Shown here piece after piece: positions 7,276 to 51,542 of a DNA stretch of 64,000 bases (the first letter of the stretch is position 1; every line of letters begins with the position of its first letter). A program made the translations under genes and the position numbers. Below the pieces are notes generated by a model. The model saw nothing but the letters and a program-made list of their open reading frames with translations. It did no database searches and had not been told where the DNA came from. This DNA comes from Escherichia phage EAWsc9, in the sequence record PQ341120.1. The stretch is one strand, 5' to 3'.

Positions 7276-7279
<4 letters not shown>

Positions 7280-7758
7280 ACACCAAGCTCCTTATAAAGT
7301 TCTTCGCGACAAGTTTTAAGGATTTTACCAGTTTCATAAGCTGCGCTTTCAGAAACATCACCAAGCGTAGCGGCAGCTTGCATTTGACCATGGCGTTTAG
7401 CCGCATATTCAAAACTTTTTACCAGTTCACGAATACGTTCTTTTTCATTGTATTCTTCAATAAATTCTGGGTATTCCCAAACAGGTCGCATCATACGATA
7501 CCACTGTTGGATAGTAATATAATTACTTCCATCCAGGTTAATAATTTGGGAAGGCTCAATAGCACCAGGAGCATAAAAAGTTACCTGTCTTACTACATCA
7601 ATACCGTCCACAATAGCCCAAGCAAAATCGAAAGTTGCCTTCTTTTCAATTGGTGTACTTGCACAGGACCCTAATTTTAAGAGCTTTTGTAATACAGGAG
7701 ATTTAATACTTGAAATGTATTCAGGCTTAGCCACAAAACTGTTATCACGTAAAGTCAT
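7276..7758 (-). CDS. hypothetical protein, about 160 aa (start trimmed to SD-preceded ATG)
   Basis: track ORF 7276..7794; GAGGAAA SD. Confidence 0.55.
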
Positions 7759-7789
7759 AGTCATTTCCTCAAATTTTATAATCCGTAGG

Positions 7790-7825
7790 AGCATTATACT
7801 CTGCTCCCATGAGTTTGTACACTAC
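7790..7825 (-). promoter_or_regulatory. T4-type early promoter with -10 inside an inverted repeat (GGGAGC...GCTCCC)
   Basis: minus-sense GTGTACAAAC ... GAGTATAATG. Confidence 0.55.
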
Positions 7826-37393: not shown

Positions 37394-37534
37394 TTACCAA
37401 ATTAACGAATGTACTGCCATTATAACATCAGAAATAAAAAGCACAACCTGCACTAATGCAAATACAACTCCATAATACAGCGCTACCAATAAGGCAGCAA
37501 GGGCTAACGAGTAGCCCAAGATTTTCTTAATCAT
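37394..37534 (-). CDS. small membrane protein A, 46 aa (MIKKILGYSLALAALLVALYYG...)
   Basis: overlaps upstream ORF B (ATGATTAA); hydrophobic. Confidence 0.45.
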   Translation of the reverse strand: MIKKILGYSLALAALLVALYYGVVFALVQVVLFISDVIMAVHSLIW

Positions 37535-37679
37535 TTTTATCCAATAATTTAAATAGTGTTAAAGTCGCTAATACACCTTGAGCTGTTGACTGCAGAAATA
37601 CTGAAGTTTCTCCAGTTATTAATGTTCCAACAAATAAAAATGACCAACAGAAAAAAGCTACGCCATGAACAAATTTCAT
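37527..37679 (-). CDS. small membrane protein B, 50 aa
   Basis: hairpin plus GAGGAAAAT SD upstream; hydrophobic. Confidence 0.45.
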   Translation of the reverse strand: MKFVHGVAFFCWSFLFVGTLITGETSVFLQSTAQGVLATLTLFKLLDKND

Positions 37680-37680
37680 A

Positions 37681-37735
37681 TTTTCCTCAAGGGCGTCCAA
37701 AGACGCCAGTTAATTTCAGATTATGACGATACCAT
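37681..37735. repeat. copy 1 of about 55-bp repeat R1 (GC hairpin + CTTGAGGAAAAT); copy 2 at 37945..38005
   Basis: near-identical sequence at the two positions. Confidence 0.85.
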
Positions 37736-37789
37736 TACAGCGCTACAGGCAGCAAGGGCTAACGAGTAGCCCAAGATTTTCTTAATCAT
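37721..37789 (-). CDS. 22-aa peptide A' (MIKKILGYSLALAACSAVMVSS), truncated duplicate of A
   Basis: first 13 codons identical to ORF A; looks like a signal peptide with lipobox-like LAAC. Confidence 0.4.
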   Translation of the reverse strand: MIKKILGYSLALAACSAVMVSS

Positions 37790-37944
37790 TTTTTCACGTA
37801 CCGTGCCAGACTTACAATTCCAGAAATAACCCATGCAATAAACATCGCGCCCATGAAAAATGTGCTTGGAGTCCAGACTCCCAAAAAGAAGCAGACTGAA
37901 CAAACCACGGCAATAATAAGTTCAATAAAAGCCAGAATAATCAT
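37786..37944 (-). CDS. small membrane protein B', 52 aa
   Basis: same upstream hairpin/SD module as ORF B; hydrophobic. Confidence 0.45.
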   Translation of the reverse strand: MIILAFIELIIAVVCSVCFFLGVWTPSTFFMGAMFIAWVISGIVSLARYVKK

Positions 37945-38005
37945 ATTTTCCTCAAGGGCGTCCAAAGACGCCAGTTAATTTCAGATTATGACGATGCCAT
38001 TGCAT
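37945..38005. repeat. copy 2 of repeat R1
   Basis: TTTTCCTCAAGGGCGTCCAAAGACGCCAGTTAATTTCAGATTATGACGAT(A/G)CCATT. Confidence 0.85.
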
Positions 38006-38033: not shown

Positions 38034-38480
38034 TTAATAGCTCTGCAGAATGAATTTAAAGTTATCAGCAAGCATGCGATTCATTTCTGAAAGGGTCTGG
38101 CAATCAGAACTATGCGAGCGAGTGAACGCCATTGCAATTTGACCTTTACCATAACCAGTTGTCAGAGGTTTCATTTTAGAAACTGGGACAAACAGGACTT
38201 CATAGATAACCCCATTGTTCGCCATTGTGCGAGACAGTTGAGAACGTTGTTTGCGGATGTGACTTAATACAGTGTCAAACCCTTGTTGTGAACGTTGGTT
38301 ACCAACATAAAAACGTGCAGCAACAATACGTGATTCGCCTTCACCTTTAACCACGAAATAAAAACCTGGTTGAGTGATAGCTTCTTTAGTCGGACGCCCG
38401 AGATAATTACCATTATGGATGTAAGCAACAGTGGTAGCGCCAGCATTCAGTACGTCACGACGGGTCATGTAAGTAGACAT
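38034..38480 (-). CDS. ndd: Ndd nucleoid disruption protein
   Basis: 148 aa; [70 protein letters not shown] match T4 Ndd. Confidence 0.93.
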
Positions 38481-38511: not shown

Positions 38512-38556
38512 CTCCAGTGGGGTCATTATACTCTGACCCCAAGAGTTTGTACACTA
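38512..38556 (-). promoter_or_regulatory. T4-type early promoter, -10 in the loop of inverted repeat GGGGTCA...TGACCCC; identical copy at 49725..49767
   Basis: minus-sense GTGTACAAAC ... GAGTATAATG. Confidence 0.6.
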
Positions 38557-48509: not shown

Positions 48510-48881
48510 TTATTCCTTAAAGTGTGCTTTCAACATCTGGTAAACGGTCCAGGCTTCGGAGTTATTAGTGATGGTGATTTTAGTCAAAGGGAATTCGCTT
48601 GGCTCAGATGGAGCTGCGTCTTCGCATTCATCTTCAGTATCGTCATCTTTTTCTTCTTCAAAGAAACGGAATTCGTCTTCCTTTATGAATAGGCTCACAA
48701 ATTCACCAGTTGATAATTCCATTTTATACACATCACCATCTTCAATTCTGACTGGTCTAAATCCCTCGCCATTGATTATAGCATTGGCTATATTATCATT
48801 ATCTGTGCATAACAAACGGAATCTGCTTTCAGCAACATTATCTTTAAAATAATACCACTTATCAGTTTCAAATTTAGACAT
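48510..48881 (-). CDS. acidic hypothetical protein, 123 aa (track ORF 48510..49004 trimmed)
   Basis: GGAGATTTATAATG. Confidence 0.5.
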   Translation of the reverse strand: MSKFETDKWYYFKDNVAESRFRLLCTDNDNIANAIINGEGFRPVRIEDGDVYKMELSTGEFVSLFIKEDEFRFFEEEKDDDTEDECEDAAPSEPSEFPLTKITITNNSEAWTVYQMLKAHFKE

Positions 48882-49098
48882 TATAAATCTCCTTCCAAAA
48901 ATCTGTACCATCTTCTGATTCTTCGCGGAACAGCGCATAGCTAGGAAGTTCTGCGTCTTTGTCTGTATACACATAAATGATATCAGTGGTGCAAAGAAAT
49001 TCATTGATGTTTTTCTTCACAATCACTTTATCACTTTCGGCAGTGTCCCAAAACTCTTCAGCGGTCAGGGAAGTGGTCACACAATCTTCATTAAACAT
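48874..49098 (-). CDS. hypothetical protein, 74 aa
   Basis: track ORF. Confidence 0.5.
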   Translation of the reverse strand: MFNEDCVTTSLTAEEFWDTAESDKVIVKKNINEFLCTTDIIYVYTDKDAELPSYALFREESEDGTDFWKEIYNV

Positions 49099-49144
49099 AA
49101 TATTCTCCTCATTGATAGGGCAAAAACCCTATCATTTTTATAAT

Positions 49145-49699
49145 TTAGGCAAAATGAATATCAGCATACTCAACGATAAAGCTCTCAGGAACAACCTTAA
49201 AGGTTCCAAGGAACACGATATTATACAGTTTGACCCCTTCTTCAACCCACTGGTCTGTGATGTAACCAGACATGCTAGTGGTTTCATAAGTCGGACCATA
49301 CATGCAATTGTATTCAAACGGTTTAGGTGAAACAAAAAAGACACCTTTGCCCAATTTCCATTTAAAATCAACCCCAACATGAGACTGGTCAATGGTTTCA
49401 ACGTCTTGAGCAATTACGCCACGAATATCATTACTTTCGCACACATATCCATCATGGGATTCAACTTCTTCAGACACAGGAGCGATATATCCAGTAAATT
49501 CGGTTGATTCTAGGAATTTAGGATGCACATAAGCCAATTGAGTTTCAGTCTGACCATTTTTAGGAATGATACGCACTTTAACTTCTTTAATTCCACCTAC
49601 TAAATTAGTGCGAAGACCCACAACCTCAACAAAACGACCAGCAGCTTTAGAACGAGATTCTTTAGAAACACGTACAATATCACCAGCTTCAACTTTCAT
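49145..49699 (-). CDS. hypothetical protein, 184 aa; shares its C-terminal domain with the next gene
   Basis: C-terminal YITDQWVEEGVKLYNIVF.GTFKVVP vs WVTDQWIEDGVELLNVVHAGEFTVVP. Confidence 0.6.
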   Translation of the reverse strand: MKVEAGDIVRVSKESRSKAAGRFVEVVGLRTNLVGGIKEVKVRIIPKNGQTETQLAYVHPKFLESTEFTGYIAPVSEEVESHDGYVCESNDIRGVIAQDVETIDQSHVGVDFKWKLGKGVFFVSPKPFEYNCMYGPTYETTSMSGYITDQWVEEGVKLYNIVFLGTFKVVPESFIVEYADIHFA

Positions 49700-49724
49700 A
49701 ATTTTCTCTCTTGGTTAATAAGTT

Positions 49725-49767
49725 TATTCTCCAGTGGGGTCATTATACTCTGACCCCAAGAGTTTGT
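49725..49767 (-). promoter_or_regulatory. T4-type early promoter, 41-bp identical copy of the one at 38512..38556
   Basis: CCAGTGGGGTCATTATACTCTGACCCCAAGAGTTTGTACAC at both sites. Confidence 0.6.
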
Positions 49768-49778
49768 ACACTTTAAAT

Positions 49779-50534
49779 TTAATTAAAAATTTCAACAACC
49801 ATGGAACGTGGTACAACAGTAAATTCACCAGCGTGGACAACGTTCAGGAGTTCAACACCATCTTCAATCCACTGGTCTGTTACCCAACCACAAATGGAAC
49901 TGTTAAATGGGCGTTTGATTTGAACTGGTTTGCATAACAAGTCAATAGGGTCACCCAGTTCGCTAACTTCTTCCAGAAGTACAGATTCACGCGGATAAAG
50001 GATAGCTTCAAGATTGTCACCTGATTCATTGACTGCAGTAAATTCAAAGATGCTTTGGTGATTGTGGTACTTAACTGTTTTAACGGTAAATGGAGCAAAT
50101 CCAAAAATACCTTTCAGTACCCGCCAACCAGCATGCATTGCGACAGTCTTTCCAAACTGACTGGCATCTTCAATAAGCTGATAGGTTTTACCAACTTTGA
50201 TAGGAATTTCTTCAACTTCTTTGAAGAGTACAATCTCAGCTTCATAAATCATAATTTTTTCTACTTCATTAGTATCAAGGCGACGTGCATGCAGAATATA
50301 TGCGTTATCAAACCAGTTACTTTTTACAAAAGTTTCAACAATAAATTCGCCTTTACCCAAAGCATCAACCAGAGTATTATACCCTAAAACCATAGCTGCG
50401 TTTTGAACAATAGGTTCAATCAGTTGATAAGTTTTGTTAATTTCAATAGTCATATTTTGTTTCTCAAGTTTTAATGGTTTAATTGGACACACGTAAGTGC
50501 TTACAACATCAAAGTCAATAAATTCTGGTTTCAT
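49779..50534 (-). CDS. hypothetical protein, 251 aa, with internal repeats and paralogous C-terminal domain
   Basis: two K(T/V)GKTYQLIE repeats; C-terminal similarity to 49145..49699. Confidence 0.6.
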   Translation of the reverse strand: MKPEFIDFDVVSTYVCPIKPLKLEKQNMTIEINKTYQLIEPIVQNAAMVLGYNTLVDALGKGEFIVETFVKSNWFDNAYILHARRLDTNEVEKIMIYEAEIVLFKEVEEIPIKVGKTYQLIEDASQFGKTVAMHAGWRVLKGIFGFAPFTVKTVKYHNHQSIFEFTAVNESGDNLEAILYPRESVLLEEVSELGDPIDLLCKPVQIKRPFNSSICGWVTDQWIEDGVELLNVVHAGEFTVVPRSMVVEIFN

Positions 50535-50791
50535 TATGCAACCTTATTGAACATCGCCAGTTGATTAGGTTGTACAACCATAATTTCACGACGGCCTTTT
50601 GCGTTTGACACGTTCAAGTAGATGCCTTTGTTCATGTCTGTTTCTTTATCATATACCGCAATTTTATTGACAGTAAAGATTTTACCACGAATATTTGTAA
50701 ATGCACATTCAAACGCTTCAGTCAGACCTGCTTCAGCAGCTTGAAGAGCAGACATTTCATATTGTTGGCCAATTTCAAAAGAAGTAATCAT
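50534..50791 (-). CDS. hypothetical protein, about 85 aa (track ORF 50534..50839 trimmed)
   Basis: GAGGATAAC SD. Confidence 0.5.
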   Translation of the reverse strand: MITSFEIGQQYEMSALQAAEAGLTEAFECAFTNIRGKIFTVNKIAVYDKETDMNKGIYLNVSNAKGRREIMVVQPNQLAMFNKVA

Positions 50792-50819
50792 TTTGTTATC
50801 CTCATCAGTAGTTGATGAG

Positions 50820-50855
50820 ATGATTATGTCTCTTTCCATTGGCCTTGTACACTAC
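50820..50855 (-). promoter_or_regulatory. T4-type early promoter
   Basis: minus-sense GTGTACAAGG ... GACATAATCA. Confidence 0.45.
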
Positions 50856-50858
50856 TTT

Positions 50859-51542
50859 TTATCGTTTTTTCGGTAAAGATAACGGGTCTGCATCTTCTTC
50901 GGAAGGAACTTCATCCAAACCAAGAGCATAGCGCTGGGCATACTTAAGCATCAAAATATCTTTCGCGCAGTCATGCACCGAATCATGCGCCACAAATCCA
51001 TCTAAAGTCCCCTTTGGTAATGGAGTTTCACACATCTTACGGACGAGTGATAGGGCTTCGATTGCTGTCCTGATATCTCGCTGGTTCCAGAATACAACCG
51101 GCTCCAGGCCATAGGTATTCAATTCACGCTCGGGAATACCCTCATTGCGCTGTAGGTCACGGATAAGGTCAACAAACAACGGGAAGTCAAAAGACATTCC
51201 ACGACACCACATAAGGCTTTCGTATTTGTTAATTCCATTACCATTCAGATAATCAATTGCCTGTTGGATACCGGTCAGAGTATCAACATCTTGCGCAGAA
51301 GGAGCCAAGTTAACACGGGCTTCTGCTGATTGCTTTTTCCACCAACCCATGGTTGTTGTATCGAACAGACGCTTACCTTTTTGGTATTCAAGGCTAAACT
51401 TGATACGTTTGCCGCGATTAACCAGGGTTTCGAATGATTCCACAATAGCAGGGTCAGATTCGAATGTAATCAGAGCCAGGTCAATAACGGCTCCCTTCGA
51501 GCCGTTTCCCAGAGTTTCAAAGTCAATAATAGCATCAATCAT
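50859..51542 (-). CDS. dexA: exonuclease A (DnaQ-like 3'-5' exonuclease)
   Basis: 227 aa; DEDD motif I IIDFETLG; same length as T4 DexA. Confidence 0.85.
   Translation of the reverse strand: MIDAIIDFETLGNGSKGAVIDLALITFESDPAIVESFETLVNRGKRIKFSLEYQKGKRLFDTTTMGWWKKQSAEARVNLAPSAQDVDTLTGIQQAIDYLNGNGINKYESLMWCRGMSFDFPLFVDLIRDLQRNEGIPERELNTYGLEPVVFWNQRDIRTAIEALSLVRKMCETPLPKGTLDGFVAHDSVHDCAKDILMLKYAQRYALGLDEVPSEEDADPLSLPKKR

Follow-up and report, generated by a model that had tools for sequence, protein, structure and literature searches.

Two adjacent genes of Escherichia phage EAWsc9 (record PQ341120.1) raise the question of how a pair of neighboring proteins came to end alike and begin differently, and what an exact copy of the promoter between them is doing some 11 kb away. 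The window analyzed is a 64,000-nucleotide stretch of that sequence. On its minus strand, open reading frames of 184 aa (49145-49699) and 251 aa (49779-50534) have the coordinates and sizes given in the original prediction. That prediction had described them as paralogs with a common C-terminal domain, one with internal repeats, driven by a duplicated promoter. The explanation that best fits the whole, and that we consider very probable, is that the segment is the motB.1-motB part of a T4-like early region, encoding modular proteins with different roles for their domains, expressed through promoter-early stem-loop (PeSL) cassettes, one of which has a duplicate in front of ndd.

Identity of the locus

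Positions 48800-50900 of the window are as much as 97% identical in DNA to genomes of Gaprivervirus, a T4-like genus of Straboviridae. The closest are pEC-M719-6WT.2 and vB_YenM_P8, and SP18 matches at 95.5%. SP18 is annotated with the order gp39, 39.1, 39.2, goF, cef, motB, motB.1, hypothetical ORF, dexA, dda, and the window shares goF-cef-motB-motB.1-ORF-dexA-dda with Gaprivervirus genomes. T4 has the order of SP18, except that the places of the 251-aa and 85-aa genes are taken by motB.1 (119 aa) and motB.2. Because of this DNA identity and gene order, together with the Pfam and PHROG family assignments given below, we identify the segment as motB.1-motB from the dispensable early region (gp39 … dexA, dda) in a T4-like Gaprivervirus. 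A search of 47.5-52 kb against Rfam returned no match below E 0.25.

The 85-aa ORF (50534-50791, minus strand) matches phrog_17795. Its long form, 101 aa from 50839, would start within an early-promoter-like site at 50823-50851 (minus strand, TGTACA-17-CATAAT, 9/12 by consensus scan). In the long form the PHROG profile covers residues 17-101, which in the short form are residues 1-85. The true start is probably 50791, giving the 85-aa form that is a full match to the profile. The promoter-like site has the upstream block AAAAAGTAGTGTACA common to other early promoters of the window (repeat family D2), and as an early σ70 promoter at about 50.85 kb it would serve both the 85-aa ORF and motB.1. 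The stop codon of the 85-aa ORF overlaps the start codon of motB.1 in the sequence TAATG, an arrangement suggesting that the two genes are probably co-transcribed and translationally coupled.

Two further observations concern this neighborhood. An 8-bp hairpin (TGATAGGG…CCCTATCA) lies at 49113-49134, between the motB stop codon and the cef Shine-Dalgarno sequence, and a T-run that follows it on the plus strand gives it a terminator-like look. A 43-aa protein, P0260, has the N-terminus of T4 MotB.2 (MKIYRVESSFSIL.YED) followed directly by the final 28 residues of the C-terminal domain found in MotB.1. It is a deletion remnant, and it shows that segments of this locus are lost in some phages.

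MotB and its linker insert

The 184-aa protein is MotB. It matches the MotB family, Pfam PF17613, over its full length (1.3e-49, 168.6 bits against a cut-off of 25), and its residues 1-184 align to positions 1-166 of phrog_1671 at 5e-68. All features of the gene are on the minus strand. A basic KOW/SH3-like N-terminal domain (residues ~1-60, 49520-49699) is followed by a disordered linker (residues ~61-109) and a β-rich C-terminal domain (residues 110-184, 49148-49372), the architecture of the MotB group. AF2, run with family alignments, models residues 8-58 as a β-domain and, with confidence, 112-180 as another, and leaves 67-108 between them as a disordered linker. The AF2 models of MotB and MotB.1 are of moderate confidence, with mean pLDDT of 70 and 75, respectively. 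Searching solved structures by sequence gave no match for MotB and just one match for MotB.1, at chance level (E 0.11).

T4 MotB is an early protein that binds DNA non-specifically, alters H-NS binding and footprints, is toxic in E. coli and doubles burst size (PMC6070864, PMC7827196). Within the family, the DNA binding, the effect on H-NS and the toxicity are known for the T4 protein only. The protein of the window resembles T4 MotB in its place between cef and motB.1, in its KOW-like and C-terminal domains, and in the promoter/stem-loop cassette that precedes its gene. It differs in length, with 184 aa against 162 in T4, and in charge, being acidic as a whole (pI 5.2) where T4 MotB is basic (pI 9.2).

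Its linker is also longer and contains a 21-aa acidic insert that JS98 has as well (VESHDGYVCESNDIRGVIAQD, residues 79-99, 49403-49465 on the minus strand), within the segment that AF2 leaves disordered. In the alignment, the window, JS98 and JS10 have this insert and the 160-163-aa MotB of SP18/VR20 type is without it, so that it is polymorphic among close relatives. It may be a short linear motif. Its core, DGYV..(D/E)..D, recalls both the DGYVVDTDV… linker motifs of proteins that combine a KOW domain with a MotB.1-type C-terminal domain and the IDFDVVSTY leader of MotB.1.

MotB.1 and its tandem domains

The 251-aa protein is the Gaprivervirus MotB.1, the product of a gene annotated as motB.1 in SP18. 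It matches phrog_2333 at 3.5e-76. It has a MotB-type C-terminal domain with the MotB.1 signature, and its gene lies directly upstream of motB in synteny with SP18 and T4. Of its residues, only 211-247 are matched by the Pfam profile for MotB (1.3e-08). On the minus strand, the gene encodes a leader motif (residues 1-27, 50454-50534), an LSm/SH3-like domain A (residues 28-109, 50208-50453), a domain B (residues 110-193, 49956-50207) and the MotB-type C-terminal domain (residues 194-251, 49782-49955). In the AF2 model the leader is disordered, residues 35-107 and 117-190 both run β-α-β-β-β-α-β, and a five-strand C-terminal domain occupies residues 203-248. The bent five-stranded antiparallel β-sheet of an SH3/LSm-like barrel is found N-terminal to the C-terminal domain, and a fold search with MotB.1 recovers T4 MotB.1. 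The N-terminal domain of MotB.1 has been described as an LSm-like barrel, kin to GoF and Frd.2 (Kim et al. 2025, PMC12152347).

Internal repeats had been noted as two copies of K(T/V)GKTYQLIE. The repetition is real and the motif slightly off, since the exact string in common is KTYQLIE, within INKTYQLIE and VGKTYQLIE. The repeat unit is larger than a 10-aa motif, being a whole domain of ~83 aa in tandem, ~28-109 against 110-193. Aligned by Smith-Waterman, domains A and B score 86 against 25.5±4.5 for shuffled sequences (z = 13.5), a score reached by 0 of 5000 shuffles. By hhalign the probability is 97.1%, with E 5.6e-11 over 80 columns, and the HMM of each domain finds the other. The copies are only ~20-25% identical, the codons for KTYQLIE differ at four synonymous sites, and the tandem duplication is old. 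When HMMs of A, B and a further N-terminal domain, X (see below), were run against all 719 ORFs of the window, only A and B matched each other, with GoF at E 0.047.

The sequence pattern of the 85-aa ORF recalls domains A and B, and in these HMM searches it scores only at E above 2. We claim membership in this fold family neither for that ORF nor for domain X, which is unrelated by sequence.

Like the MotB.1 described in PMC7827196, the protein is encoded immediately upstream of motB, ends in DPxDLLC…GWVTDQWIEDGVELLNVVH and has a β-barrel of the MotB.1 type at its N-terminal side. It differs from T4 MotB.1 in having two tandem barrels. Domain B resembles the N-terminal domain of T4 MotB.1, and domain A that of ~180-aa proteins in other Tequatrovirus and Mosigvirus phages. 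Gaprivervirus MotB.1 carries the two domain subtypes in tandem, a minor addition to the known picture.

Deletion of motB.1 from T4 had no phenotype (PMC12152347). The T4 reference motB.1 (NC_000866 7291-7650; L002:4292-4651 in our locus set) has an extra G: its TGGATTGGAAGATGG stands against TGGATTGAAGATGG in five T4-like contigs. Because of the frameshift the protein terminates at GWVTDQWIGRWR plus a stop codon, and the next frame is still intact through EDGVELLNVVHAGEYSVVPRSAVVAILN and its stop. A close relative, P0244, has 144 aa. Unless the extra G is a sequencing error, the 119-aa T4 MotB.1 used in experiments would be without half of the domain that it shares with MotB.

The shared C-terminal domain

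The C-terminal similarity of the two proteins, for which failure to exceed shuffled controls had been named as the refuting outcome, stands far above those controls. The Smith-Waterman score is 119 against 20.8±4.1 (5000 shuffles, maximum 48, z = 23.7). By BLASTP, MotB residues 140-177 (49169-49282, minus strand) align to MotB.1 residues 211-248 with 20/38 identities, 29/38 positives and E 3e-12. The AF2 strands coincide at the BLASTP offset, MotB 156-163, 166-171 and 175-178 against MotB.1 227-234, 237-242 and 246-248. In a joint alignment the homology goes beyond these 38 aa to span the whole C-terminal domain. There the DPxDLLCxxVxIxxPF segment of MotB.1 aligns to VDFKWKLGxxVxFxxPxxF of MotB, and MotB has a hairpin insertion of ~19 residues between this segment and the shared core. 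By these comparisons, the adjacent genes are paralogous in the C-terminal domain. Patterson-West et al. (2021, PMC7827196) had already described MotB and MotB.1 as having a common C-terminal domain with different N-terminal domains, and had suggested duplication. Among the MotB homologs in their supplement are orthologs of the 251-aa protein, namely SP18 gp012, VR20_011, VR25_011 and VR26_012, and also the one of VR7.

The DNA of the core motif (repeat family D11) is 77% identical between the two genes over 48 nt. This would fit a reading in which recent gene conversion between neighbors produced both the similar C-termini and the identical promoters, as artefacts with no functional meaning. 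However, both C-terminal domains are conserved across Tequatrovirus, Mosigvirus, Dhakavirus and Gaprivervirus while remaining mutually distinct, and the promoter stem evolves by compensatory changes, as described below. We regard an artefact of this kind as extremely improbable.

Across phages, the C-terminal domain occurs behind several different N-terminal regions. A KOW domain precedes a MotB.1-type C-terminal domain in proteins of 126-199 aa (P0243, P0245, P0246 and others). Domain A alone precedes it in proteins of ~180 aa from many Tequatrovirus and Mosigvirus phages, and domain B alone in proteins of 144-165 aa (P0100, P0244 and T4 MotB.1). Domain X together with A precedes it in P0008-type proteins of ~248 aa. 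The form with A and B in tandem, 250-252 aa, was found only in a Gaprivervirus set at 88-95% identity. The family thus appears, from these combinations, to have been assembled by domain shuffling, the C-terminal domain having been joined with KOW, A, B, A plus B or an unrelated N-terminal domain.

The family is narrow: when 1.84 billion proteins were searched exhaustively by HMMER with a C-terminal-domain profile, no more than 36 clusters (at 50% identity) were recovered, and the confident ones are all short. Longer candidates of 567-862 aa that look like tail fibers (P0258, P0259, P0261 and others) match the profile at E 1e-6 to 5e-4 through repeated 'SLSGYATEQWVLDKNYITG' / 'SGYATEQWV' units. 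This is probably resemblance at the level of a motif only, and they were set aside as homologs.

Possible roles of the domains

In the proposed organization, MotB would consist of a basic KOW-type β-barrel, a flexible linker and a β-domain of ~70 aa, and MotB.1 of a short leader, two tandem LSm/SH3-like barrels (A and B) and a shorter form of the same β-domain. Median pI is 10.1 for the MotB KOW domain, 5.1 for the MotB C-terminal domain and 4.3 for that of MotB.1, and the C-terminal domain of T4 MotB is near neutral at pI 7.9. Given an acidic C-terminal domain and a basic KOW head, nucleic-acid binding would be expected in the head domains, and the shared domain would serve as a common partner-binding or oligomerization module. 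By this indirect argument from charge, the shared domain is probably not the DNA binder.

Patterson-West et al. proposed that the C-terminal domain is an OB-fold and might bind DNA (PMC7827196). A shared domain that is itself a DNA-binding OB-fold, with MotB.1 as a second non-specific DNA binder having the activity of MotB, seems to us unlikely. A fuller version of the partner-module reading can be drawn. The C-terminal domain would contact a partner, such as H-NS/StpA, or form MotB-MotB.1 hetero-oligomers, while carrying swappable heads (KOW, or one to two LSm-like barrels). MotB.1 would act as a second, possibly RNA-directed, anti-silencing arm, and the identical cassettes would co-time motB and ndd, both acting on the host nucleoid. 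In this full form the proposal is speculative and decidedly unlikely.

The promoter/stem-loop cassette before motB

Between motB.1 and motB lies a 44-bp cassette of PeSL type (49729-49772, minus strand, AGTGTACAAACTCTTGGGGTCAGAGTATAATGACCCCACTGGAG), which from its sequence and from other phages would start motB transcription. Its −35 box TGTACA (49765-49770) and −10 box TATAAT (49742-49747), 17 bp apart, are the top σ70 match of the region in a consensus scan (10/12), and the DNA upstream, TTAATTAAATTTAAAG, is AT-rich. Although the pair had been described as driven by a duplicated promoter, the cassette stands between the paralogs, where it serves motB and can drive the 184-aa gene only. An 8-bp stem, TGGGGTCA/TGACCCCA (49735-49758), holds the −10 box in its loop and 3' arm, and an outer CUCU/GGAG stem lengthens the helix. 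The predicted RNA fold has −18.6 kcal/mol (z −3.3). The hairpin has no U-tract, and is therefore not a classical intrinsic terminator.

The cassette also precedes motB in T4 (stem GGGACCA/TGGTCCC), VR25, UPEC01, DK-13 and VR20. A scan of viral contigs with a corrected pattern that left two covarying stem pairs free gave 26 matches in 25 loci, which together with fetched loci make 19 distinct variants. Across these variants all 152 of 152 cells of the stem are paired, and in two of the pairs both members have changed, one pair occurring as CG, GC, UA, GU and UG. The covariation score was reached by 0 of 500 shuffles, and registers slid by one to three columns pair only 33-52% of cells. By this comparison, the stem over the −10 box is under selection as a structure, kept from T4 to the window by compensatory changes. 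The presence of G·U pairs among the variants speaks for a hairpin formed in sense-strand RNA. Judging by the position of the −10 box, the cassette's own transcript would start ~7 nt after it, within the 3' arm. The hairpin would then form only in transcripts reading through from the motB.1 side, and in such RNA it would attenuate transcription, as in published PeSLs.

PeSL cassettes have been described in T4-type phages (Arbiol et al. 2010, PMC2839356; Comeau et al. 2014, PMC4122927). Their stem-loops mostly lie between the promoter boxes or over the −10 box, often with G-run/C-run stems, and the cassettes both recombine among themselves and attenuate transcription arriving from upstream (PMC2839356, PMC4122927). 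Promoter and terminator/attenuator activity was shown by lacZ fusions for RB49/phi1 only (PMC2839356). In each feature open to sequence comparison, the 44-bp cassette appears to match the published PeSLs. It has the boxes of a σ70-type early promoter at ~17-bp spacing, an AT-rich upstream region, and a stable stem-loop with a G-run/C-run stem overlapping the promoter at the −10 box. A Shine-Dalgarno sequence and ATG come next, the position is intergenic in a hyperplastic early region, and there are several copies per genome. It differs from them in host genome, the published examples coming from RB49/phi1, T4/PST and KVP40/nt-1 rather than from Gaprivervirus. It differs also in that two copies in the window are identical over 44 bp though 11 kb apart.

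The copy before ndd and other cassettes

The second cassette (38512-38555, minus strand; −10 box TATAAT at 38525-38530) lies directly before ndd (38034-38480; Pfam PF06591, 1.3e-68). The original prediction had reported an exact 41-bp copy of the ndd promoter 11 kb away. The copy is exact and in the same orientation, 11,217 bp apart, and its length is 44 bp. Each of the four Gaprivervirus genomes examined has it: the window, VR25 and UPEC01 with the same sequence, and DK-13 with one extra C. It adjoins a gene (VR7 gp283-like) that T4 lacks, and the T4 region upstream of ndd is without the cassette and unrelated in sequence. The motB copy has a stem that is polymorphic in the genus: TCA/TGA in the window, SP18 and VR20, CCA/TGGT in VR25 and UPEC01, and CCG/GGC in DK-13. 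The ndd copy would be a duplicate that was either retained unchanged or homogenized by gene conversion. Conversion from ndd to motB and retention of the ancestral state could both explain the 44-bp identity, as the variants differ by only 2-3 nt.

A third cassette of the same subfamily (7785-7823, minus strand) has the covarying stem GGGAGCA/TGCTCCT and is followed by a 172-aa ORF (7276-7794, minus strand) that matches phrog_4482. On the strand of the cassette the window has ~17 early-promoter-like sites, several with −10 hairpins. Minus-strand sites 1150, 17412, 18453, 39720 and 40312 have stable hairpins around the −10 box (−11 to −22 kcal/mol), and sites 40312, 35864 and 54211 have long stretches in common (repeat families D2 and D6). 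Just downstream of ndd, small membrane-protein ORFs (MIKKILGYSLALAA…) are doubled by a near-perfect tandem duplication (37492-38004) whose period is ~255-265 bp, with stretches of 47 nt at 100% and of 64 nt at 97% identity.

Ectopic recombination between the motB and ndd copies, as the original prediction had proposed, is plausible because of the published PeSL work (PMC2839356, PMC4122927). A stronger reading is that the 44-bp identity is kept as an active recombination site, and that exchange between motB and ndd would shuffle or delete the 11-kb block in the manner of the PeSL mini-circles of RB49/phi1. Recombination of PeSLs and excised circles were shown experimentally in those phages (PMC2839356), and 44 bp is near the ~50-bp homology used by the T4 recombination system (cited in PMC2839356). 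The contrast between a polymorphic motB copy and a constant ndd copy in Gapriverviruses would fit ndd-to-motB conversion in the lineage of the window, and the gene upstream of ndd is unlike its T4 counterpart. However, no deletion, inversion or transposition affects the copies in any of the 33 phage records that contain the element, 21 of which have it in at least two places. The interval contains rIIA/B and topoisomerase gene 39, so that deletions would be counter-selected, and with only 2-3 stem positions varying, ordinary compensatory substitution also suffices. We judge an active site unlikely.

One junction that might have been taken for a cassette rearrangement, in DCP80 (PQ671644, L011:3480-3680), was rejected. 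A run of N in motB is a scaffold gap in this 141-kb 'complete genome', and after it the sequence resumes in a truncated long-tail-fiber gene.

Significance

The finding is correct and largely ordinary, and some of its details may be useful to those who work on T4 early genes. The paralogy, the fold of the MotB.1 N-terminal domain and the type of cassette are each already published, and near-identical genomes are in GenBank. The minor additions are the tandem A plus B form, the covariation of the hairpin, the acidity of the shared domain, and the ndd copy, limited to Gaprivervirus among the genomes compared. The compensatory changes give the PeSL hairpin comparative support that it had lacked. 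The frameshift within the shared domain of the T4 reference motB.1 bears on negative results obtained with T4 MotB.1. The domain map presents the shared C-terminal domain as a portable module, whose acidity argues against a role as the DNA binder.
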